Assembly: GCA_017537175.1 (NCBI GenBank)
Contig: JAFYLH010000010.1
Coordinates: 15,740 to 79,739, forward strand
Reading direction: 5' to 3'
DNA length: 64,000 nt
DNA from: Clostridia bacterium
GTDB lineage: Bacteria > Bacillota > Clostridia > Oscillospirales > CAG-272
Shown here: in pieces, positions 4,497 through 52,566 of the stretch
How the letters are laid out: the number at the start of each line of letters is the position of its first letter
Numbering within the stretch: position 1 is the stretch's first letter
Position numbers and translations under genes: made by a program
Notes under the pieces: model-generated
What the model was told of the DNA's origin: nothing
Database searches by the model: none
The model's input: only the letters and a program-made list of their open reading frames with translations

Positions 4497-5339
4497 TTAC
4501 TTCATTTTAAGTACATATTTTCCCATTTCGACCTTAAAATGGCTTGAAATTACAGGGCATTTTACCTTAAAAAGGTAAAAAATTTCCCTGTTTGCGTCAT
4601 CAAGAGCCTCATAATTGCCCTGACCCTTGGATATGACCACGTCAGCTGTTTCAAATGCCGCTTTAAACTCATTGCTTGCCTCGGAGAGGATGGTACCGGG
4701 AGCAGTGGAGCCGCTGGAAATGATACGTGCATATTCTGCTATACCCGAACGCTCTGCTATCTCAACAGTAGCATCGTTTATACTGGGACAGTCACGGACT
4801 GCGTAGATTATCTCAACGTCACCCAATGCACGGAGCATAAGCACGTCAAAGTAGGTCTCACCCGAGTTGTCGGCTAAGATAAGCACCCTTTTGGCAGTTT
4901 TGAGCTTTTCACGCAGAAGCTCGATATCACAGATGCCGTAGGGTGTGTCAAGCTCTGCCGCCATAGATTCCTTAAAGGAGCCGCCGGGGTTTGCCGCACT
5001 GTCAAGGGTGTTGCCCGCACAGGCAGCCTTGATGCCCCAATACAGCGGATCATCCTTTGTAGCGATATACTCCTCTACCAAGGGGAAGTTGGCTTTGGCT
5101 GTGGCCATATCCTCTTCCTTTATATTATAATAGGGATCACGGCACCCGCTCATAGCACGTACACAGTTATGCATAGGTCCTGCGATATGAGGAGGAGAAG
5201 CGTAGCTCTCATAATCCGAGAGTATCTCCAGCTCCTTTTTCATTATATCGTGCTTTGTTTTATCGTCCGCCCCTGTCATGACAACTGCGTCAGTTACCTG
5301 ACGCAGTAAACAGTGCAGACATTCTGCCTGTATTCTCAT
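4497..5339 (-). CDS. DUF89 / ARMT1-like damage-control phosphatase family protein
   Basis: 280-aa ORF with an N-terminal CLHCLLRQ motif, ADNSGE..FD and KGQGNYE, as in DUF89 metal-dependent phosphatases. It overlaps the upstream kinase gene by 4 nt. Confidence 0.75.
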   Translation of the reverse strand: MRIQAECLHCLLRQVTDAVVMTGADDKTKHDIMKKELEILSDYESYASPPHIAGPMHNCVRAMSGCRDPYYNIKEEDMATAKANFPLVEEYIATKDDPLYWGIKAACAGNTLDSAANPGGSFKESMAAELDTPYGICDIELLREKLKTAKRVLILADNSGETYFDVLMLRALGDVEIIYAVRDCPSINDATVEIAERSGIAEYARIISSGSTAPGTILSEASNEFKAAFETADVVISKGQGNYEALDDANREIFYLFKVKCPVISSHFKVEMGKYVLKMK

Positions 5340-6315: not shown

Positions 6316-7269
6316 TTATAAACCAAGAGAAGCAGCACCGATGATGCCTGCATCGTTACCAAGCTCAGCGATCTTGATAACTGTCTTGTCATCGTGAGAG
6401 TTAGTGCCGTACTGATCACGGTCAACGATCTCCTTTACGGGGTTGAGCAGATAATCGCCCTCGCCGCAAACACCGCCGCCGATAGCAAATACCTGAGGCT
6501 GGAAGATGTTTACGATGTTAACCATACCGTATGCAAGGTAGTTGATGTACATGTCAACAACCTCTTTGCCTGCCTTGTCACCCTGCTTTGCAGCGTTGAA
6601 GGCAGTTCTGCCGCTGGTCTTTTCGATATCGCCCTCTACCATATCCCACATGATGGTGTCCTTGGTTTCCATGAGCTTTTCCTTAGTCATACGGATAAGA
6701 CCTGTAGCAGAGGAATAAGCCTCCCAACAGCCCTTTCTTCCGCAGGTACAAGGCTTGCCGCCGTACTCGATTGCCATATGACCGATCTCGGCACCTGCAT
6801 AGTTAAAGCCGGAGTAGAGCTTGCCGCCGATAACCATACCGCCGCCAAGACCTGTACCGAGAGTGATAAGGATAAGATCGTCACAGCCCTTACCTGCGCC
6901 TGCCTTTGCCTCAGCCAGAGCTGCAGCGTTAGCGTCGTTCTCGAGGTAAACCTTCTTTACGGGGATGTGAGACATAAGCTTCTCAGCGATGGGATAGTGG
7001 AACATCTTGATGTTGTTGCAGTACTTAACCACGCCGTTTGCGGGGTCAACGGTACCGGGAGCAGCGATACCAACGTATGCGATATCGTCAAAGGAGATAC
7101 CGGTACGCTCAACAAGGGACTTGATAAGATCAGCCATGTCCTTGATGATCTCGTCGCTGGGTCTGCCTGCAAGGGTAGGAACCTTGTCCTTTAATACAAT
7201 GTTGAACTCCTCGTCAACAATACCTATGGCGATATTGGTACCGCCAAGGTCAACACCTACATAATACAT
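6316..7269 (-). CDS. glcK: ROK-family glucokinase
   Basis: VGVDLGGTNIAIG ATP-binding motif, ENDANAAALAE, and the ROK zinc motif CTCGRKGCWE. Confidence 0.8.
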   Translation of the reverse strand: MYYVGVDLGGTNIAIGIVDEEFNIVLKDKVPTLAGRPSDEIIKDMADLIKSLVERTGISFDDIAYVGIAAPGTVDPANGVVKYCNNIKMFHYPIAEKLMSHIPVKKVYLENDANAAALAEAKAGAGKGCDDLILITLGTGLGGGMVIGGKLYSGFNYAGAEIGHMAIEYGGKPCTCGRKGCWEAYSSATGLIRMTKEKLMETKDTIMWDMVEGDIEKTSGRTAFNAAKQGDKAGKEVVDMYINYLAYGMVNIVNIFQPQVFAIGGGVCGEGDYLLNPVKEIVDRDQYGTNSHDDKTVIKIAELGNDAGIIGAASLGL

Positions 7270-9410: not shown

Positions 9411-10776
9411 GGTTGAAGCTATACTTGACAAAGAGTTTACACCCATGATGCTGGTGTACAAGGAATTTACAGAAGGGGCAAAGGCTGCAGGCGGTACAAA
9501 GCTCGTTATCGGCATCGAGCGTAACAAGGGCTACGTTTCCGCATTTGAGACAGTTATCTACCCCGAAGGCACAGGCCATGACGACGAGAACTACGAGTTC
9601 ATCGAGAGACTTGTTAAGTCCCTTCTCTGGGTACGCGGCGGTCACAAGATCATCATCGCTGGCTCAAAGCTCATCGCAGACAAGCTGACAGAGGCTTACT
9701 CTGCTGAAGGTACTCGTGCATTTGACTTTGATTTTATGAGCGGTATCTACGAAACTACCGTTACAGTTGAATACAGAGACATCGCTGATGCTCCCGCAAC
9801 CAACGAGTCCGCTACTCCTATCGGCCGTCACCTTGACGGCTGCCGTATCGGCTTTGATGCAGGCGGAAGCGACAGAAAGGTTTCTGCAGTTATCGACGGC
9901 AAGAGCGTATACAGCGAAGAGGTTGTTTGGTTCCCCAAGACAAACTCCGATCCCGACTATCACTACGACGGTATTCTCTCCGCTATGAAGTCTGCGGCTG
10001 AGCATATGCCCAGAGTTGATGCTATCGGTGTTTCCTCTGCAGGTGTTTACGTTGACAACCGTATTATGGCTGCTTCCCTGTTCCTTAAGGTTTCTAAGGA
10101 AGAGTTTGACGCTAAGTGTAAGGATATGTACATCAACGTAGCAAAAGAATTTGGCGATGTTCCGCTGGAAGTAGCAAACGACGGTGACGTTACCGCTCTT
10201 GCAGGTGCTATGGATCTTAACGACAACAACGTTCTCGGTATCGCTATGGGTACAAGTGAGGCAGGCGGTTACGTTGACGGTCAGGGCAACATTACAGGCT
10301 GGCTCAACGAGCTTGCATTCGTTCCCTGCGACTACTCTAAGAACTCTATGGTTGACGAGTGGTCAGGAGATTATGGCTGCGGCGTTAAGTACTTCTCTCA
10401 GGATGCAGTTATCAAGCTTGCTCCCGCTGCAGGTATCGAGCTTGAGGAGTCCCTTTCTCCCGCTGAAAAGCTTAAGGTAGTTCAGGGTCTTATGGCAGAG
10501 GGTGACGAAAGAGCCGCAAAGATCTATGACACCATCGGTGCATACTTTGGCTACACCATCGCTTACTACTCTCTTTTCTATGATATAAAGCACGTTCTTA
10601 TCATGGGCCGTGTTACCTCCGGTGAGGGCGGTGTAATCCTTCTTGACCGTGCAAAGGAAGTTCTCGCAAAGGAATTCCCCGAGCTTAACGAGAAGATCAC
10701 ACTTCACATTCCCGACGAAAACAGCCGCCGTGTAGGTCAGTCTGTAGCTGCGGCAAGCCTTCCCGAAATCAAGTAA
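9400..10776 (+). CDS. ROK-like / ASKHA-fold sugar kinase homologue with an extra roughly 150-aa N-terminal domain
   Basis: GFDAGGSDRKV phosphate-1 motif, GVSSAGVY and ANDGDVTALAG. It overlaps nagA by 11 nt, so it is probably co-translated. Substrate is not inferable. Confidence 0.6.
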   Translation: MKLKVEAILDKEFTPMMLVYKEFTEGAKAAGGTKLVIGIERNKGYVSAFETVIYPEGTGHDDENYEFIERLVKSLLWVRGGHKIIIAGSKLIADKLTEAYSAEGTRAFDFDFMSGIYETTVTVEYRDIADAPATNESATPIGRHLDGCRIGFDAGGSDRKVSAVIDGKSVYSEEVVWFPKTNSDPDYHYDGILSAMKSAAEHMPRVDAIGVSSAGVYVDNRIMAASLFLKVSKEEFDAKCKDMYINVAKEFGDVPLEVANDGDVTALAGAMDLNDNNVLGIAMGTSEAGGYVDGQGNITGWLNELAFVPCDYSKNSMVDEWSGDYGCGVKYFSQDAVIKLAPAAGIELEESLSPAEKLKVVQGLMAEGDERAAKIYDTIGAYFGYTIAYYSLFYDIKHVLIMGRVTSGEGGVILLDRAKEVLAKEFPELNEKITLHIPDENSRRVGQSVAAASLPEIK

Positions 10777-13230: not shown

Positions 13231-14618
13231 TAATGCTTGAGGAGGTTCTCAATATATTCTATCTGTGCTTCAACTGATGCCACGCAGGTTCCGCCCTTAG
13301 AGATACGCTTGTTTACGCAGGTTTCAAGGTTTATCGCCTCGTAGATATCCTCCTCGAAAAGCTCGCTCATTTCCTTATACTTTTCTAAGGGAAGCTCTTC
13401 AAGAGTGGTGTGATTTTCGATACACATAGCAACGCTCTGTCCCACTATCTTGTAAGCTGTACGGAAGGGCATTCCCTTCTTAACCAGATAGTCGGCACAG
13501 TCGGTGGCGTTGATGAATCCACCGCCTGCGGCACGGTACATATTCTCTTTGTTTACCTTCATTGTTGCAAGCATGGGGGTTGCAATAGAAAGACAGGCAG
13601 AAACAGTTTCAACTGCATCAAATATGCCCTCCTTATCCTCCTGCATATCCTTGTTGTATGCAAGGGGAATACCCTTAAGCACGGTAAGTATGCCCATAAG
13701 ATCACCGTAAACACGGCCTGTCTTGCCTCTTATAAGCTCTGCCATATCGGGGTTCTTCTTCTGGGGCATGATGGAGCTGCCTGTGGAATAGCTGTCATCA
13801 AGGTCGATAAACTTAAATTCCCAGCTTGACCACATAATTATCTCCTCGCAAAGGCGGGAAAGGTGCATCATAATGATCGAGAAGCACGCAGTAAGCTCAA
13901 CACAGTAGTCACGGTCGCTTACACCGTCAAGGCTGTTTAAAGCAACACCGTCAAAGCCAAGCTCGGCTGCCACCATATCACGGTCTGTATCGTAGGTAGT
14001 ACCTGCAAGAGCACAACATCCGAGAGGAGATGTGTTCATAAGGCTCTTTGCGTTCTGTAATCTCTTGATATCACGGCTGAACATCATAGCATAAGCCATC
14101 ATATGGTGACCCAAGGTTACAGGCTGCGCCCTCTGAAGGTGAGTGTAGCCGGGCATAATTGTAGCCTTATGCTCCTTTGCGATCTCAAGAAGCGCCGACA
14201 TAAGATTGCGGGTAAGCTCTATAACCTCGTCGGTACGGGTCTTCATATACATTTTGAGATCAAGTGCGACCTGATCGTTACGGCTGCGCGCGGTATGAAG
14301 CTGCTTGCCGATGTCCCCTATACGCTTGGTCAGCTCCGCCTCAATGAACATATGTATGTCCTCGGCATTCATATCGAACTCAAGCTTTCCGTCGTCTATG
14401 TCAGCCAAAATATAGCCTAATGTTTCTATTATCTTTTCGCTTGACTCCTTGGGGATAATGCCCTTGGCACCAAGCATAGCCGCGTGTGCCATAGAGCCTG
14501 TGATATCCTCACGGTACATCTTAGAGTCAAATCTTATTGATGAGTTAAAATCGTTTGCCGCTACATCAAGCTCTTTTGCAAAGCGGCCTGCCCACATTTT
14601 TTCCATAGCTTTCTCCAT
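13230..14618 (-). CDS. argH: Argininosuccinate lyase
   Basis: MWAGRF N-terminus and the fumarate-lyase signature GSSIMPQKKNPD. The start is ambiguous among ATG 14618, 14606 and 14597; the track ORF extends to 14666. Confidence 0.9.
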   Translation of the reverse strand: MEKAMEKMWAGRFAKELDVAANDFNSSIRFDSKMYREDITGSMAHAAMLGAKGIIPKESSEKIIETLGYILADIDDGKLEFDMNAEDIHMFIEAELTKRIGDIGKQLHTARSRNDQVALDLKMYMKTRTDEVIELTRNLMSALLEIAKEHKATIMPGYTHLQRAQPVTLGHHMMAYAMMFSRDIKRLQNAKSLMNTSPLGCCALAGTTYDTDRDMVAAELGFDGVALNSLDGVSDRDYCVELTACFSIIMMHLSRLCEEIIMWSSWEFKFIDLDDSYSTGSSIMPQKKNPDMAELIRGKTGRVYGDLMGILTVLKGIPLAYNKDMQEDKEGIFDAVETVSACLSIATPMLATMKVNKENMYRAAGGGFINATDCADYLVKKGMPFRTAYKIVGQSVAMCIENHTTLEELPLEKYKEMSELFEEDIYEAINLETCVNKRISKGGTCVASVEAQIEYIENLLKH

Positions 14619-14677
14619 ATAATGATCAATATATAACAGAATACCATATTTCAATGGATAAATCAATAGTTTATAAA

Positions 14678-14699
14678 GAAAACCGCCAAAGCGGTTTTC
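14678..14699. repeat. GAAAACCGC-caaa-GCGGTTTTC hairpin (copy 1 of 5)
   Basis: Perfect 9-bp stem and 4-nt loop, located between argG and argH. Confidence 0.9.
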
Positions 14700-14738
14700 T
14701 TCCTTAATTCCTAACTCCTAACTCCTAATTTCTAATTT
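14700..14738 (+). repeat. Heptad array (TTCCTTA ATTCCTA ACTCCTA ACTCCTA ATTTCTA ATTT)
   Basis: 7-bp periodicity starting with the TTCCTTA junction directly after the hairpin. Confidence 0.9.
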
Positions 14739-23301: not shown

Positions 23302-24251
23302 AAGAAAAAACAGGAAGCTTTTTGTCCTCAAACGGCACAAGCAATATAACCTACCGCATCTGTCTGCCCGAGGGTAACGCCAAGGGTATAATACAGATAT
23401 CCCACGGTATGTGCGAGTATTTTGACAGGTACGAGGATACCATAAAATATTTTACAGACTGCGGCTTTGTTGTGTGCGGAAATGACCATATGGGTCACGG
23501 CAAGAGTGTGGCTGCAGAGGACTTGGGCTATTTTGGCTCTGACAACTGGAGATGCCTTGCCGATGATCTGAAGCAATTAAACGATATAGTAAGAAAACGC
23601 TACCGCACCCTGCCCTATATACTGCTGGGTCATTCTATGGGTTCATTTATTGTGCGGGATTATATCACAAGATATGCAGACAGTATAGACGGCTGTATCA
23701 TCTGCGGAACTGCAGGCAGTAACAAGGCTCTGGGCGGCGGACTTTTGCTCTGCTCGGTCATAGAAAGGCTCAAGGGTCCAAGGTACAGAAGCAAGCTGAT
23801 AAAGGATATATCCTTCTCCGGCTACAACAAGCTCTTTAAGAGCGAAAAGGATGAGCTATCCTGGCTCAGCCGTGACGAGGCGGTAAGAAAGGCTTATGCC
23901 GATGATGACTATTGCGGATTTACCTTTACGGTAAGCGCATATAAAAATCTTTTTAATCTGCTTAAATATGTTTCAAGCGAGGAGTGGGCGAAAAATGTTC
24001 CCCTCTGGCTTCCCGTATTCATTATAAGCGGACGCGACGACCCTGTAGGCGGCTACGGCAAGGGTGTTGACGAGGTGTTTGACGCTCTCAATGACTGCGA
24101 GCTTAATTTTTTGAAATACAAATTATACGATGACTGCCGTCACGAGCTTTTTAACGAGAAAAACAAGACCGAGGTCTGTGAGGATGTAAAGGCGTTTTGT
24201 GACGAGGTAATAGAAGGAGTGCTTGAGGCAAGAGGATATGGCTTACATTAA
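23298..24251 (+). CDS. Alpha/beta hydrolase (lysophospholipase / monoacylglycerol-lipase-like)
   Basis: HGMCEY...GNDHMGHGKS and the nucleophile elbow GHSMGS. It overlaps the previous gene by 4 nt. Confidence 0.75.
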   Translation: MKEKTGSFLSSNGTSNITYRICLPEGNAKGIIQISHGMCEYFDRYEDTIKYFTDCGFVVCGNDHMGHGKSVAAEDLGYFGSDNWRCLADDLKQLNDIVRKRYRTLPYILLGHSMGSFIVRDYITRYADSIDGCIICGTAGSNKALGGGLLLCSVIERLKGPRYRSKLIKDISFSGYNKLFKSEKDELSWLSRDEAVRKAYADDDYCGFTFTVSAYKNLFNLLKYVSSEEWAKNVPLWLPVFIISGRDDPVGGYGKGVDEVFDALNDCELNFLKYKLYDDCRHELFNEKNKTEVCEDVKAFCDEVIEGVLEARGYGLH

Positions 24252-24660
24252 GATATTGGCGGTGGATTACGGAGATGTGCGTACGGGACTTGCAATTTCG
24301 GATGCCCTTGGTATGATGGCAAACGGAATAGGTACGGTCAAGGCAAAGGGGATGCACGAGCTCTGTGACATAGTTATAGAACACGCAGTAAAAAACAATG
24401 CGGGCAAGATAGTAATAGGCGATCCCGTGAACATGAACGGCACAAGAGGACCGCGCAGCGAAAAGGCTCATTTGTTTGCAGACTTTTTAAGAGAAAAGAC
24501 AGACCTGCCGGTAGAGCTGTTTGACGAAAGATGCTCCACTATGGTGGCACACACCTATCTTGATGCCACAGGCACCCACGGTAAAAAGCGCAAAGATGTT
24601 GTTGATACTCTTTCGGCGCAGATAATATTGCAGGATTATTTGGATCGGCACAGGTCTTGA
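24223..24660 (+). CDS. ruvX: Putative pre-16S rRNA nuclease / Holliday-junction-resolvase-like protein YqgF
   Basis: ILAVDYGDVRTGLAISD N-terminal motif and SAQIILQDYL C-terminus. The start is uncertain (TTG 24223 or ATG 24238). Confidence 0.85.
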   Translation: MRQEDMAYIKILAVDYGDVRTGLAISDALGMMANGIGTVKAKGMHELCDIVIEHAVKNNAGKIVIGDPVNMNGTRGPRSEKAHLFADFLREKTDLPVELFDERCSTMVAHTYLDATGTHGKKRKDVVDTLSAQIILQDYLDRHRS

Positions 24661-24676
24661 TGCCTTGCATCAAGAC

Positions 24677-24757
24677 GCGATATAAATCCCTTATGGGATT
24701 TGCGATATTCCCCAAGGGGAGCGATATATCCTTCGGATGCGATATGCCCTGTGGGGC
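24677..24757 (+). repeat. Array of 4 units, each GCGATAT plus a different short hairpin
   Basis: The four units are GCGATAT-AAATCCC-tta-TGGGATTT, GCGATAT-TCCCC-aa-GGGGA, GCGATAT-ATCC-ttcg-GAT and GCGATAT-GCCC-tgtg-GGGC. Confidence 0.85.
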
Positions 24758-24852
24758 GCGGGGGATTTATATCATATCGCGTTGAACGAAGTGAGACATA
24801 TCGCGTTTGTATAGCAAACATATCACATACGAACAAAGTGAGTATATATCGC
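24758..24852 (-). repeat. Inverted continuation: 4 units ending in ATATCGC/ATATCAC
   Basis: The units are ...CATATCGC (24773-24780), GTTGAACGAAGTGAGAC-ATATCGC, GTTTG-tatag-CAAAC-ATATCAC and ATACGAACAAAGTGAGTAT-ATATCGC. Units 2 and 4 share GAAC[GA]AAGTGAG. Confidence 0.7.
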
Positions 24853-24883
24853 AAAACACCCCGAGGTCTCTCGGGGTGTTTTA
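24853..24883 (-). terminator. Terminator of the small Cys-rich gene
   Basis: AAAACACCCCGAG-gtct-CTCGGGGTGTTTT directly after the stop at 24884. Confidence 0.8.
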
Positions 24884-25039
24884 TTATATAATCTGCTCTT
24901 CCTTTAGTTTTTCCAGCTGATCGGCAGGAATGTCTACATAAATACATTCTATACACTTGCCTTGAATGTCAAGTGATATACTATCCAATACACATTTATT
25001 TTTTCTGTTATATATACAGTATTCGTTTTCACAGTTCAT
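24884..25039 (-). CDS. Small (51 aa) Cys-rich protein, putative zinc-binding; function unknown
   Basis: ORF 24884..25069, with the start moved to ATG 25039, which sits behind a strong RBS (GGAGGTG). Cys residues are at positions 3, 8, 16, 29 and 32. A terminator lies directly after the stop, and the region is AT-rich. Confidence 0.65.
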   Translation of the reverse strand: MNCENEYCIYNRKNKCVLDSISLDIQGKCIECIYVDIPADQLEKLKEEQII

Positions 25040-25060
25040 AATAGCACCTCCTATCGTTAA

Positions 25061-25123
25061 TTGTAGCACATTTGTAATGCATTTGCAATGGTTATTTGTA
25101 GCACAATATGTATTACAATTGTA
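25061..25123. promoter_or_regulatory. Operator-like repeats in the divergent promoter region of the Cys-rich/RHH gene pair
   Basis: TTGTAGCACA occurs twice, 35 bp apart (25061-25070 and 25096-25105). There is a perfect palindrome TACAATTGTA at 25114-25123. Confidence 0.4.
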
Positions 25124-25149
25124 TCAACAGCGGTACTGTGGAGGTAAGT

Positions 25150-25323
25150 ATGAAAAAATTTAAAATTCCGTCAACTCCCCTAACGACAAACAAATCCATA
25201 AGATTTCCCAATGATATCATAGAAAAAGTTGAAAACGCAATACAAGGTAAGGAATGTACTTTTACCGCATTTGTAGTAGAAGCTGTGCGCGTTGCTTTAG
25301 AAAATTTAGAAGAAGAAGAATAG
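25150..25323 (+). CDS. Small (57 aa) ribbon-helix-helix (CopG/Arc/omega-like) DNA-binding protein
   Basis: The start at ATG 25150 follows a GGAGGTAAG RBS. KSIRFPNDIIEKVENAI (beta strand plus helix 1) and FTAFVVEAVRVALENLE (helix 2) fit the RHH fold. It is divergent from the Cys-rich gene. Confidence 0.65.
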   Translation: MKKFKIPSTPLTTNKSIRFPNDIIEKVENAIQGKECTFTAFVVEAVRVALENLEEEE

Positions 25324-25414
25324 TCGATATGCTTGCTTCGTAAGCTCGATATGTTCGTCTTACGACGAACTCGATATGTCCCTTACGGGACTCGATATGT
25401 TTTGCAAGCAAAAC
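25324..25414 (+). repeat. Array of 4 units, each TCGATAT plus a different hairpin
   Basis: The four units are TCGATAT-GCTTGC-ttc-GTAAGC, TCGATAT-GTTCGTC-ttac-GACGAAC, TCGATAT-GTCCC-ttac-GGGAC and TCGATAT-GTTTTGC-aa-GCAAAAC. Confidence 0.85.
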
Positions 25415-25446
25415 GAGAAAAAGACACCCGAGGGTGTCTTTTTTAT
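25415..25446. terminator. Bidirectional terminator between the RHH gene and the NSS transporter gene
   Basis: AAAAAGACACCC-gag-GGTGTCTTTTTT. Confidence 0.8.
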
Positions 25447-36005: not shown

Positions 36006-36069
36006 TTTCTTCCCTCCCTTCATTTTCATAATATGCTTTGAAAACACATAAGTGCCGAGGGATAAAAAC

Positions 36070-36146
36070 GAAAACCGCAGGTTTTCTCATAACATCAGGT
36101 AAAGCCGGATCTATAACGCTCGCCAAAGGCAATCATAACTCATAAC
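36070..36146 (-). repeat. Array of hairpin plus TCATAAC units (inverted partner of 36606-36714)
   Basis: The units are GAAAACC-gcag-GGTTTTC + TCATAAC (36087-36093), then ...CTATAAC (36111-36117), then GCC-aaa-GGC.. + TCATAAC TCATAAC (36133-36146). Spacings are 24, 22 and 7 nt. Confidence 0.8.
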
Positions 36147-36198
36147 TGAAAGAGGTAGCTTTAAATCGTATTTTATCTCAGGTTTAGAGCATAAAATC

Positions 36199-36227
36199 TT
36201 GACATTCAAAATACTGTATGTTATAAT
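36199..36227 (+). promoter_or_regulatory. Consensus promoter driving the tRNA-Gln locus
   Basis: TTGACA-17 nt-TATAAT (perfect consensus), 111 nt upstream of the mature tRNA 5' end. Confidence 0.75.
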
Positions 36228-36244
36228 ACTACGGTAATAAATTT

Positions 36245-36268
36245 GAATATTGGGATATGGTGTAACGG
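36245..36268 (+). repeat. Duplicated 5' fragment of tRNA-Gln (24-nt direct repeat of 36333-36356)
   Basis: GAATATTGGGATATGGTGTAACGG is identical at both positions. This upstream copy continues into unrelated hairpins GCGGTC-cac-GACCGC and GATAAC-cgaatgaa-GTTATC. Confidence 0.9.
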
Positions 36269-36338
36269 GCGGTCCACGACCGCAGGGATAACCGAATGAA
36301 GTTATCTTTGTTTAACAATTATTCCGCGAACCGAATAT

Positions 36339-36412
36339 TGGGATATGGTGTAACGGCAACACACAAGACTTTGACTCTTGCTTTGTAGGTTCGAGTCCTG
36401 CTATCCCAGCCA
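36339..36412 (+). tRNA. tRNA-Gln (anticodon UUG), CCA encoded
   Basis: Hand-folded cloverleaf. The acceptor is TGGGATA/TATCCCA and the D stem is GTGT/ACAC. The anticodon arm is CAAGA-CTTTGAC-TCTTG and the T arm is GTAGG-TTCGAGT-CCTGC, with discriminator G plus CCA. A consensus promoter lies roughly 110 nt upstream and a terminator follows directly. Confidence 0.9.
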
Positions 36413-36441
36413 ATAAAAAAGATGCTTCGGCATCTTTTTTT
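36413..36441 (+). terminator. Terminator directly after tRNA-Gln
   Basis: AAAAAAGATGC-ttcg-GCATCTTTTTTT. Confidence 0.85.
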
Positions 36442-36443
36442 AT

Positions 36444-36463
36444 TGGCAGCAGGGCTCGAACCT
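36444..36463 (-). repeat. Inverted fragment of the tRNA-Gln T-arm/acceptor 3' end
   Basis: The reverse complement, AGGTTCGAGCCCTGCTGCCA, aligns with tRNA 36387-36412 (AGGTTCGAGTCCTGCT...GCCA). Confidence 0.8.
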
Positions 36464-36559
36464 TGAGAAGGTCCGGGCGTTAAGAAAACAGTCCGGTGGA
36501 CTGTTTTTAGCACGGATGCGTGAGCCGTCAGGCGAGGGTGCGATACGCGAAGCGTATCT

Positions 36560-36575
36560 GTCCTGCTATCCCAGC
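36560..36575 (+). repeat. Duplicated 3' fragment of tRNA-Gln (16-nt direct repeat of 36395-36410)
   Basis: GTCCTGCTATCCCAGC is identical at both positions. This copy is followed by its own terminator-like hairpin. Confidence 0.9.
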
Positions 36576-36604
36576 AAAAAAAGCATCCTTCGGGATGCTT
36601 TTTC
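36574..36604. terminator. Second terminator-like hairpin after the duplicated tRNA 3' fragment
   Basis: AAAAAAAGCATCC-ttcg-GGATGCTTTTT. Confidence 0.7.
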
Positions 36605-36605
36605 A

Positions 36606-36714
36606 GTTATAAGTTATGAGCTTGCCGTTGGCAAGCGTTATGAGAAAACCTTTGGTTTTCGTTATGAAAAAGCCTACGGCTTTTGTTATGATATGGCTGT
36701 CGCCATAGTTGATA
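36606..36714 (+). repeat. Array of GTTATGA plus variable-hairpin units with a constant 24-nt period
   Basis: It begins GTTATAA, then has four GTTATGA units. The first two carry GCTTGC-cgttg-GCAAGC and GAAAACC-tttg-GGTTTTC. The last two carry AAAAGCC-tacg-GGCTTTT and TATGGC-tgtc-GCCATA. It ends GTTGATA. Heptamer starts are at 36613, 36637, 36661, 36685 and 36708. Confidence 0.9.
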
Positions 36715-36741
36715 ATAAAAAACCACACTCAGGAAGTGTGG
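36712..36741 (-). terminator. Terminator of the CHAP/SLH hydrolase gene (the hairpin spans its stop codon)
   Basis: CCACACT-tcctga-AGTGTGG on the minus strand, followed by TTTTTT. Confidence 0.7.
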
Positions 36742-52518: not shown

Positions 52519-52531
52519 AATTTACCTTTCC

Positions 52532-52566
52532 AATTCTCAATTCTCAATTCTCAATTCTCAATTAAA
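52532..52566 (+). repeat. Heptad array (AATTCTC x4 perfect, then AATTAAA)
   Basis: It lies 13 nt upstream of the ruvA start codon (minus-strand gene). Confidence 0.9.

Follow-up and report, generated by a model that had tools for sequence, protein, structure and literature searches.

A mirrored word-and-hairpin repeat related to the Gut-1 motif beside a small divergent gene pair in a Clostridia genome

Between ruvX and an SNF transporter gene, a stretch of 64,000 nucleotides (nt) from contig JAFYLH010000010.1 of a Clostridia bacterium (hereafter the window) carries arrays in which a fixed seven-base word alternates with hairpins of ever-changing sequence. This 790-bp interval is made up of two unrelated things: copies of a repeat, one complete (24654-24852) and one half (25324-25414), and a divergent pair of small genes. 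Judged by their sequence, the window copies are a divergent, sub-threshold branch of the orphan Gut-1 family (Rfam RF01706), a catalogued motif type that an earlier, sequence-only reading of the window had missed. We put at roughly 0.55 the probability that the element is a palindromic-unit repeat resembling repetitive extragenic palindromic (REP) sequences and bacterial interspersed mosaic elements (BIMEs), prone also to local rearrangement, and we infer for it a role at the 3' ends of transcripts. This reading is preferred because the copies lie past stop codons and mostly within a transcription unit, because their changes preserve structure, and because their halves mirror each other and carry complementary words.

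Architecture of the element and its family

Word-and-hairpin arrays are present on both sides of the small genes, as the sequence-only reading had described, with GCGATAT words at 24677, 24702, 24721 and 24739 and TCGATAT words at 25324, 25346, 25371 and 25392, as both a reading of the sequence and a mechanical scan confirm. The left array is one complete element of about 180 nt, consisting of four word-and-hairpin units, a conserved centre and four mirrored units. The features of the two copies and their borders are:

24223..24660, plus strand: ruvX (YqgF; Pfam PF03652, E = 4.6e-37), with the left element in its 3' region
24654..24676, plus strand: hp0, a locus-specific hairpin GTCTTGATGC-ctt-GCATCAAGAC that overlaps the ruvX stop codon and directly precedes the element
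24677..24757, plus strand: 5' half, four GCGATAT+hairpin units with stems AAATCCC, TCCCC, ATCC and GCCC
24758..24773, plus strand: centre with GGGATTTATATC (24762-24773), conserved in most copies
24774..24852, plus strand: 3' half, four mirrored units with words ATATCGC (24774, 24798, 24846) and ATATCAC (24820)
24853..24882, bidirectional: terminator-like hairpin AAAACACCCCGAG-gtct-CTCGGGGTGTTTT, common to ruvX and the Cys-rich gene
25324..25414, plus strand: half element, four TCGATAT+hairpin units, beginning 1 nt past the stop codon of the ribbon-helix-helix (RHH) gene
25418..25443, bidirectional: terminator-like hairpin, common to the RHH gene and the SNF transporter gene

Both arrays sit between a stop codon and a terminator. 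Every word in them, and in a related GTTATGA array at a tRNA-Gln locus of the window, abuts a different perfect hairpin with zero unpaired bases between. Exact 7-mers in at least three copies spaced 14-36 nt apart form arrays at three loci in the window, compared with 0.17 arrays per dinucleotide-preserving shuffle, so chance is not the explanation; CGATAT occurs 80 times against an expected 34 +/- 6, and 11 of the 80 fall inside this interval. On both strands the left element folds far better than its shuffles (z = -5.95 and -6.81). Read on the minus strand, its 3' half is again word plus hairpin. The inverted units first placed at 24758-24852 are indeed four mirrored units, but they span 24774-24852, and 24758-24773 is the conserved centre; two are plain hairpins as claimed and two (24781-24797 and 24827-24845) are not, although these can be drawn by eye, without individual folding of the units, as GA-bulged mini-hairpins with a C-GAA-G loop. 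Loops are short, as had been said, but several of the reported tetraloops are in fact 3-nt loops (TTC). The fourth left unit is followed by GCGGGGGATTTATATC, whose final 12 bases complement GATATAAATCCC perfectly, and the 12-mer GGGATTTATATC is perfectly complementary to GATATAAATCCC in unit 1 (24679-24690). The right half array is followed by GAGAA, as in canonical copies.

The arrays are not unique to this locus. Scans of contigs with unit 1 as the query (CGATATAAATCCC-N4-GGGATTT) recovered 66 metagenome loci and three viral contigs, 69 loci in all (these and the loci of related genomes are given below as L numbers), with the same ordered architecture in nearly all of them: a locus-specific hairpin, four [G/T]CGATAT+hairpin units, GAGAA-GGGATTTATATC, three to four ATATCG[A/C]+hairpin units and, at the 3' edge, a terminator or else the following gene's ribosome-binding site. 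Within the 5' half, hairpins 1 and 4 are conserved and hairpins 2 and 3 are free. The grammar of fixed word, kept structure and free stem sequence that had been proposed from the window is therefore real and general. The commonest layout has both halves abutting ('>>>><<<<', n = 23), and half copies account for 33 arrays. All copies are intergenic, and they are dispersed, repeated extragenic imperfect palindromes of the kind that defines REP sequences and BIMEs: there are two loci in the 64-kb window, two to three copies in each of L094, L103 and L009, and three in the 10.6-kb L153. In a relative of the window (L009), an array with the same first hairpin and order of parts stands behind a different gene. 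A covariance model of our own (R1), built from 32 homologues, scored 103.7 bits on the left half (by construction), 41.7 bits (E = 7.7e-8) on the right array and 24.1 bits (E = 1.3e-3) on the minus strand of the mirrored half (24764-24889). Against annotated plasmids and phages the element gave no meaningful match. L153 is an IMG/VR contig classed as viral, with its copies at 5006-5085, 7055-7158 and 10041-10185; the two other viral contigs, L152 and L154, have one copy each.

The consensus of Gut-1 is GUGAAAU plus a hairpin, three times over, which is the same grammar as that of the window arrays, and its seed alignment includes GCGAUAU and GUGAUAU words. The four GCGATAT units at 24677-24757 fit its description as at least three tandem hairpins split by a G[U/C]GA[A/U]AU heptamer. 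In a permissive Rfam scan, window positions 24675-24750 reached 32.6 bits (E = 2.5e-4), below the gathering cut-off of 50 bits, and scores elsewhere were 39.7 bits (L122), 65.7 bits (L126) and 56.4 bits (L169). L126, which passes the cut-off, has the window's exact unit 1 and centre but GTGATAT words, and L169, which also passes, lies at the locus orthologous to the window's tRNA-Gln array. Because homologues of the same architecture pass, we class the window copy among divergent relatives of Gut-1. On the opposite strand, Gut-1 also matches the mirrored half in L122 (27.9 bits) and L126 (37.7 bits), and the same centre with AUAUCAC arrays lies in the 3' flanks of two of five inspected Gut-1 seeds; the right TCGATAT array and the GTTATGA array had no match to the Rfam model.

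Gut-1 was described by Weinberg et al. in 2010 (PMC2864571) from 43 examples, all from the human gut and without organism or function; a literature search for Gut-1 or RF01706 found nothing beyond it. The published motif and our element agree in a heptamer (GUGAAAU, GUGAUAU or GCGAUAU) alternating with hairpins of free sequence and UUC/UUGC-type loops, and in a source in gut metagenomes and uncultivated Clostridia. They differ in that the window copies use GCGAUAU/UCGAUAU or GUUAUGA words and have four hairpins rather than the three modelled, and in that the published motif, as we read its description, is the 5' half alone, with no mention of the mirrored half, half copies, multi-copy dispersal, the position after stop codons or the DNA-like symmetry. 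Relatives of a motif that has been an orphan in Rfam since 2010 can now be placed in Acutalibacteraceae-like gut and rumen Clostridia, and the catalogued three-hairpin form is only half of a mirrored, multi-copy, post-stop element of about 180 nt. What Gut-1 is can now be framed as a choice between alternatives open to test, namely a 3'-end module like REP, a site of DNA recombination and a small RNA (sRNA).

Arrays built on other words occur in the same or related contigs, some of them beside a CGATAT-type copy. Such words include GTGAAAT/GTGATAT (true Gut-1), AATTCAT, GTTATAG/GTTGTAT and TATAAT-like 7-mers (L133 1214-1358, L109 5471-5542, L021 14721-14772 and L030 17060-17250), so the grammar is that of a superfamily with locus-specific words. 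In L021, three tandem units of about 127 nt (14294-14700) lie immediately upstream of the GTTATAG-type hairpin array. In many copies, T-type elements among them (L107, L113 and L093, for example: GCGAGAAGGGATTT), the centre contains GAGAAGGG, the 8-mer from which SpoIIIE takes its orientation on the chromosome of Bacillus subtilis, and window positions 25415-25423 read GAGAAAAAG; the likeness may be a coincidence, because the variants GAGAGGGG and GTGAGGGG are common.

Stem covariation, strand symmetry and position after stop codons

The stems are supported by covariation. In the alignment of 32 homologues, 96.7% of stem cells are paired, compared with 81.5% in shuffles, and 91 cells carry double changes, compared with 26.5; none of 500 shuffles reached either value, and pairing falls to about 45% when the stem partners are slid. 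The stems are nearly all Watson-Crick, with G:U pairs counted forward and in reverse at 6 and 6 in the 5' half and at 8 and 8 in the 3' half, among some 400-480 pairs each, and because the G:U and A:C counts are symmetric neither strand is favoured. The loops are mirrored as well, C-TTC-G, TGAC and TTT in the 5' half answering to C-GAA-G, GTCA, GCAA and GTAA in the 3' half. The variable base of the word is complementary between the halves of an element in 85 of 100 comparisons, against 44 after permutation (maximum 73), with 6 G:U and 4 A:C pairs across halves, and words of other types are likewise matched by their reverse complements (GTGATAT/ATATCAC, ACGATGT/ACATCGT and GTTATGA/TCATAAC). The window element folds as well on one strand as on the other, words of one half pair with those of the other in its minimum-energy fold, and the linker stays at exactly 7 nt throughout while stem lengths vary. 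Watson-Crick stems, mirrored loops and complementary words do not look like the features of a one-strand RNA, and the evolution of the element looks like that of DNA palindromes rather than that of a single-strand RNA. Coding of peptides in the arrays was rejected, as the stems are free to vary.

With orientation counts that rest on crude open reading frame (ORF) calls, the nearest upstream ORF is on the strand of the element in 22 cases and on the other in 9, and the element starts 1-50 nt past the stop codon; the orientation of the downstream gene is mixed (17 versus 13). In L153, each of the three copies follows the stop codon of one of a series of successive same-strand genes. A terminator-like hairpin with a T tract comes directly after the element in 14 of 42 copies, more often than directly before it (8 of 42), and roughly a dozen printed copies, counted by eye, run into the ribosome-binding site of the next gene. 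Position and orientation together suggest that the element is co-transcribed with the upstream gene. A link to stable RNA genes, prompted by L126, L030, a Gut-1 seed and the window, was rejected as a rule, since only two of 60 loci contain a tRNA.

If transcribed in this manner, at a gene's 3' end or in between cistrons, the stacked hairpins could shield the upstream RNA from 3' exonucleases and insulate neighbouring units from each other, and the AU-rich single-stranded heptamers may act as endonuclease entry sites, each cut leaving both new ends closed by a hairpin. Enzymes of the RNase Y type cleave AU-rich single-stranded RNA immediately upstream of a hairpin. REP sequences are known to protect mRNA 3' ends and to be hot spots of rearrangement. 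Our element shares with them and with BIMEs (and REPINs) of Proteobacteria the short extragenic palindromes with a short conserved flanking word and the many dispersed copies after stop codons and between convergent genes, clustered in both orientations. It differs from them in its word, a 7-mer with a GATAT core rather than GTAG, in stem sequence that varies from unit to unit, in a layout of four direct and then four inverted units around a specific centre rather than alternating ones, and in a host from the Oscillospirales (Firmicutes); nor is a transposase of the REP-associated tyrosine transposase (RAYT) type (Y1 HUH) linked to it, none recurring near the 69 loci. The earlier statement that the arrays are neither CRISPR (clustered regularly interspaced short palindromic repeats) nor classical REP therefore stands. 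Clusters of hairpins at intrinsic termination sites (Sci Rep 2021, PMC8355165) are alike in placing several adjacent hairpins downstream of stop codons; their description appears to be generic, without an invariant linker word, a mirrored half or a family relationship between sites.

Several observations weigh against a REP-like element acting in transcripts. In 8 of 42 copies a terminator-like hairpin immediately precedes the element, so that little transcription would enter it from that side. The direction of replication, rather than that of transcription, could underlie the orientation bias, because Firmicutes genes are mostly co-oriented with replication. The missing excess of G:U pairs and the mirrored loops oppose selection on one RNA strand. 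Among 88 loci of relatives (about 1.3 Mb) the R1 model matched only L009, L164 and L169, so the distribution is patchy. Finally, genomes that differ widely in G+C share a strongly conserved heptamer, which a generic hairpin barrier does not explain; this conservation hints at a sequence-specific partner, a protein or a nuclease, and leaves room for a dedicated system at the level of DNA.

The original annotation of Gut-1 in Rfam, as a gene and sRNA with covariation, would instead make the element a trans-acting structured sRNA whose GAUAU heptamers titrate an RNA-binding protein in the manner of CsrB or RsmZ. Protein-sponge RNAs carry repeated motifs in their linkers, and a strongly conserved heptamer between variable stems resembles that grammar. 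We nevertheless consider such a role improbable for the family. A -10-like TATAAA lies in unit 1, but there is no conserved -35, because hp0 differs at every locus (and is sometimes a terminator that abuts the element), and thus no conserved promoter; in many copies the following gene's ribosome-binding site comes straight after the element, several copies can occur on one contig, half copies exist, and each half mirrors the other, without an excess of G:U pairs on either strand.

Sister species and rearrangement beside arrays

Comparison with other genomes had been proposed as the way to follow the interval, and it was possible to a limited extent: related genomes put the window close to Acutalibacteraceae, the best match to its SNF transporter being 72% identical, the ruvX-SNF neighbourhood is conserved in none of 80 related species, and one usable sister lineage (L164-L167; GCA_045133915.1 and metagenome contigs) keeps the order GH94, SNF, RHH, the 51-residue Cys-rich ORF (Cys51) and ruvX, with flanking DNA about 79% identical over the aligned 3.2 kb of L165. 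L164 retains the left element. An alignment of the two, counted by eye, shows six compensatory double changes in stems and zero one-sided ones, and of the double changes hp0 has two, hairpins 2 and 3 have one apiece and a mirrored unit has one or two. The hp0 loop is exactly reverse-complemented in L164 (CTT to AAG) on a kept stem, which resembles the flip of a palindrome, and plain hairpins stand in place of two mirrored units of the left element. Where the window has four units in its right array, L164 has one, and both edges of the 65-nt indel fall at words. The orthologous loci L087 and L095 differ by a swap of hairpin 2 for another that is unrelated to it. Five metagenome contigs from the window's own species match it at 100% identity and are hence uninformative on strain variation.

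Array grammar also brackets the tRNA-Gln gene, as the sequence-only reading had noticed, and this locus (36040-36720) is a rearrangement hot spot. Its two arrays are:

36066..36145, plus strand: inverted (mirrored) units, hairpin plus TCATAAC/TATAAC, a related array on the other side of tRNA-Gln
36613..36707, plus strand: four GTTATGA+hairpin units with a 24-nt period (words at 36613, 36637, 36661 and 36685), a related array that is absent from the sister species L170

The tRNA-Gln gene is intact at 36339-36412, with a copy of its first 20 nt upstream (36249-36268) and, after it, an inverted remnant of the tRNA 3' end (36443-36462) and a duplicate of its final 17 nt (36560-36576). In L170 the tRNA-Gln is plain, accompanied by two mirrored units and no right array, and in L169 the promoter-tRNA-terminator module is inverted and accompanied by four units and an extra DUF6560 gene. 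The word is uniform within each array and differs by species, being TCATAAC in the window, TCATATC in L170 and ATATCAT in L169.

Other loci show small genes beside arrays. In L009 (4960-6481), a 265-residue membrane/zinc-ribbon ORF with no Pfam match has the mirrored half of an element on one side and, on the other, a duplicate of 51 nt of the upstream deacetylase gene together with the element's entire 5' half; these repeats, of 51 and 95 nt, are 1.2-1.4 kb apart. In L105 (200-741), an element has beside it a distant RHH-like gene and a small Cys-rich ORF, arranged divergently as in the window. This pair is flanked by two copies of a terminator hairpin of about 41 nt (200-240 and 700-740), with one difference by eye and an exact 24-nt repeat. 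A gene for a four-helix-bundle '23S rRNA intervening sequence protein' (PF05635) lies 20-45 nt downstream of a full element at 7 of the 66 metagenome loci (L092 781-1393, L148 842-1450, L093, L104, L130, L132 and L090) behind differing upstream genes such as rubrerythrin and an RNA methyltransferase, and in L030 (16284-17290), next to 5S/23S genes, a PF05635 gene has arrays, a duplicated terminator and a fragment of 5S rRNA on its flanks. Among the titles and abstracts that a literature search listed, none ties PF05635 genes to hairpin repeats. All-against-all clustering of ORFs from the 69 loci gave no recurrent transposase, recombinase or integrase; PF05635 is the only recurrent neighbour family identified, and the other multi-locus clusters, orthologous sets or antisense ORFs, were not followed up.

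A REP-like element could produce such changes passively. Direct and inverted heptamers together with palindromes would promote slippage and template switching, which would lead to loss and gain of units bounded by words, replacement of hairpins, inversion of loops and perfect Watson-Crick stems, and also to inversions and partial duplications beside the arrays and to variable small genes nearby. The arrays would then be passive hot spots beside which such genes accumulate, and they can be flagged as markers of local genome plasticity in poorly studied gut bacteria.

The alternative is that the changes are directed. In a dedicated DNA-level cassette system, the arrays would be recognition sites for a structure- and word-specific recombinase or HUH-type nuclease, folding in single-stranded DNA (possibly, by word pairing across the halves, as a ladder of four-way junctions) and mediating insertion, inversion and exchange of the genes they bracket. 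The Watson-Crick stems, mirrored loops and complementary words would suit such sites, as would the C-GAA-G and GNNA loops on the strand bearing ATATCGN, since loops of these kinds are typical of stable DNA mini-hairpins. Three loci (the RHH cassette, tRNA-Gln and L009) have the order mirrored units, cargo, direct units. Sister species differ by an inversion of the tRNA-Gln module, small genes in L105, L030 and L009 have duplicated terminators or targets on their flanks, and PF05635 genes recur next to elements in differing contexts. Even so, we think a dedicated system unlikely, given that most copies stand alone without cargo, that no recombinase, transposase or integrase recurs near the 69 loci, that defined target-site duplications were not seen, that the orientation bias and the placement just past stop codons fit a transcript-linked element better, and that the observed rearrangements can arise passively from repeats. 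The cassette-bracketing idea of the sequence-only reading thus keeps one part, in that arrays do adjoin variable DNA (the tRNA-Gln module, L009, L030 and L105) and their unit number varies (4 versus 1), and loses another, in that the arrays are not a property of this cassette: their commonest form is the stand-alone '>>>><<<<' (the 23 cases above) after stop codons of unrelated genes.

A bolder version holds that Gut-1-type arrays in general are DNA elements and not RNA genes, their single strands folding into a four-way-junction ladder from which a hairpin leaves each strand at every step; we give this little credence. Were it true, a word- and structure-specific enzyme would give the Oscillospirales an integron-like or REP/RAYT-like system at intergenic sites, by which small genes (RHH/Cys-rich pairs, PF05635 genes, even a tRNA module) would be moved, inverted and swapped.

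The same instability would follow if the element had no host role at all and were a selfish repeat, or a by-product of slippage and quasi-palindrome template switching in tolerated intergenic sites. Perfect stems without a strand-specific signal, unstable unit numbers, swapped hairpins, a patchy occurrence among relatives and words that are homogenised within an array but differ by species at one locus (the TCATAAC, TCATATC and ATATCAT of the tRNA-Gln arrays) are all consistent with this. It is nonetheless a doubtful account of an element that keeps its order of four units, centre and four units, and also an unvarying unit 1 and centre, in genomes that differ greatly in G+C, that holds its linker at exactly 7 nt despite variable stem length, and that shows an orientation bias and a preference for sites just past stop codons.

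The enclosed gene pair and other candidate systems

The two small genes are divergent and lie in an AT-rich stretch, as previously reported: the interval 24884-25323 has a G+C of 33%, compared with 46.4% for the window, and is in the lowest 1% of 440-nt windows. Its features are:

24884..25039, minus strand: 51-residue Cys-rich ORF (Cys51), lineage-specific, 8 homologue clusters
25061..25118, no strand: operator-like repeats TTGTAGCAC (25061 and 25096) and inverted TTGTAATAC (25110) in the divergent promoter region
25150..25323, plus strand: 57-residue YlcI/YnfO-family protein (NCBIfam NF041551)

The 57-residue protein belongs to NF041551 (41.9 bits against a cut-off of 30, E = 7.6e-11) and matches phrog_949 (E = 1.2e-9). 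It is probably an RHH protein. That fold is a dimer of chains with an N-terminal strand and then two helices; in a low-confidence AlphaFold2 monomer model, with a predicted local distance difference test score (pLDDT) of 60.8, helices 21-31 and 38-51 fit it and the strand is not predicted. Its match to CopG-family RHH proteins in the PDB is weak (E = 0.41), as is that of the Cys-rich ORF to DUF1540 (E = 0.11). Searches for homologues gave 2981 clusters for the 57-residue protein (the best 120 being 79-100% identical) and only the 8 clusters for the Cys-rich ORF.

The RHH gene is independent of the arrays. The sequence-only reading had tied the two together, and in its strongest form the idea makes the CGATAT arrays a partition site or operator array to which the RHH protein binds, as omega-, ParG- or ParR-type proteins do at theirs. 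RHH proteins of plasmid partition systems do bind arrays of short direct or inverted repeats, and in the window arrays flank the RHH gene. The comparative evidence makes this explanation very hard to sustain. RHH orthologues that are 79-100% identical occur in other species in different, array-free contexts (with GGDEF, flavodoxin-like and PALP neighbours), 68 of the 69 element loci have no RHH homologue, and in the sister species only one unit remains downstream of the RHH gene. A close homologue of RHH or Cys51 is found at none of the 69 loci, L105 alone having an RHH-like gene (33% identical) and another Cys-rich ORF. A different repeat, TTGYARYAC, is conserved upstream of the RHH gene in four species, occurring two to three times in the 130 nt upstream of the orthologues (window, L164, L155 and L161) compared with 0.04 times per 130 nt window-wide, and in L164 two of the repeats form a perfect 11-bp inverted repeat. 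These repeats are likelier RHH binding sites than the arrays are, and the RHH gene, which has these operator-like repeats of its own, likely regulates itself. The suggested link between the RHH protein and the arrays is thereby removed.

Four further systems were considered and rejected for the arrays. Integron attC sites are alike in conserving structure over sequence, in the short 7-mers that flank the fold and in the variable small genes that adjoin them. An attC site is an imperfect palindrome of 57-141 nt bounded by RYYYAAC and GTTRRRY, present once per cassette and with intI nearby. The window units are 18-25 nt long and in tandem without intervening genes, most copies have no cargo, and neither TCATAAC/GTTATGA nor ATATCGC/GCGATAT fits that consensus, GTTATGA failing at two positions; no integrase was found in the inspected flanking ORFs. 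A CRISPR array has identical repeats of at least about 23 nt, unique spacers that are not palindromic, and cas genes. Read as one, the arrays here would have a repeat of only 7 nt and 'spacers' that are palindromes of 11-19 nt, and Rfam matches to direct repeats were at chance level (E >= 1). The ends of the element are complementary (TCGATAT...ATATCGA), as in a miniature inverted-repeat transposable element, which also has a target-site duplication and nearly identical copies, but no target duplication was seen and every stem differs between copies. An array of the ToxI type from type III toxin-antitoxin systems, in which nearly identical tandem repeats precede the gene of a toxin endoribonuclease, does not suit units that differ in sequence and that have ruvX, the Cys-rich ORF, the RHH gene and SNF as neighbours, and PADLOC gave no match. 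Elsewhere in the window (52530-52562), a short tandem run of about four copies of the 8-mer AATTCTCA lies just upstream of the start of a minus-strand gene.

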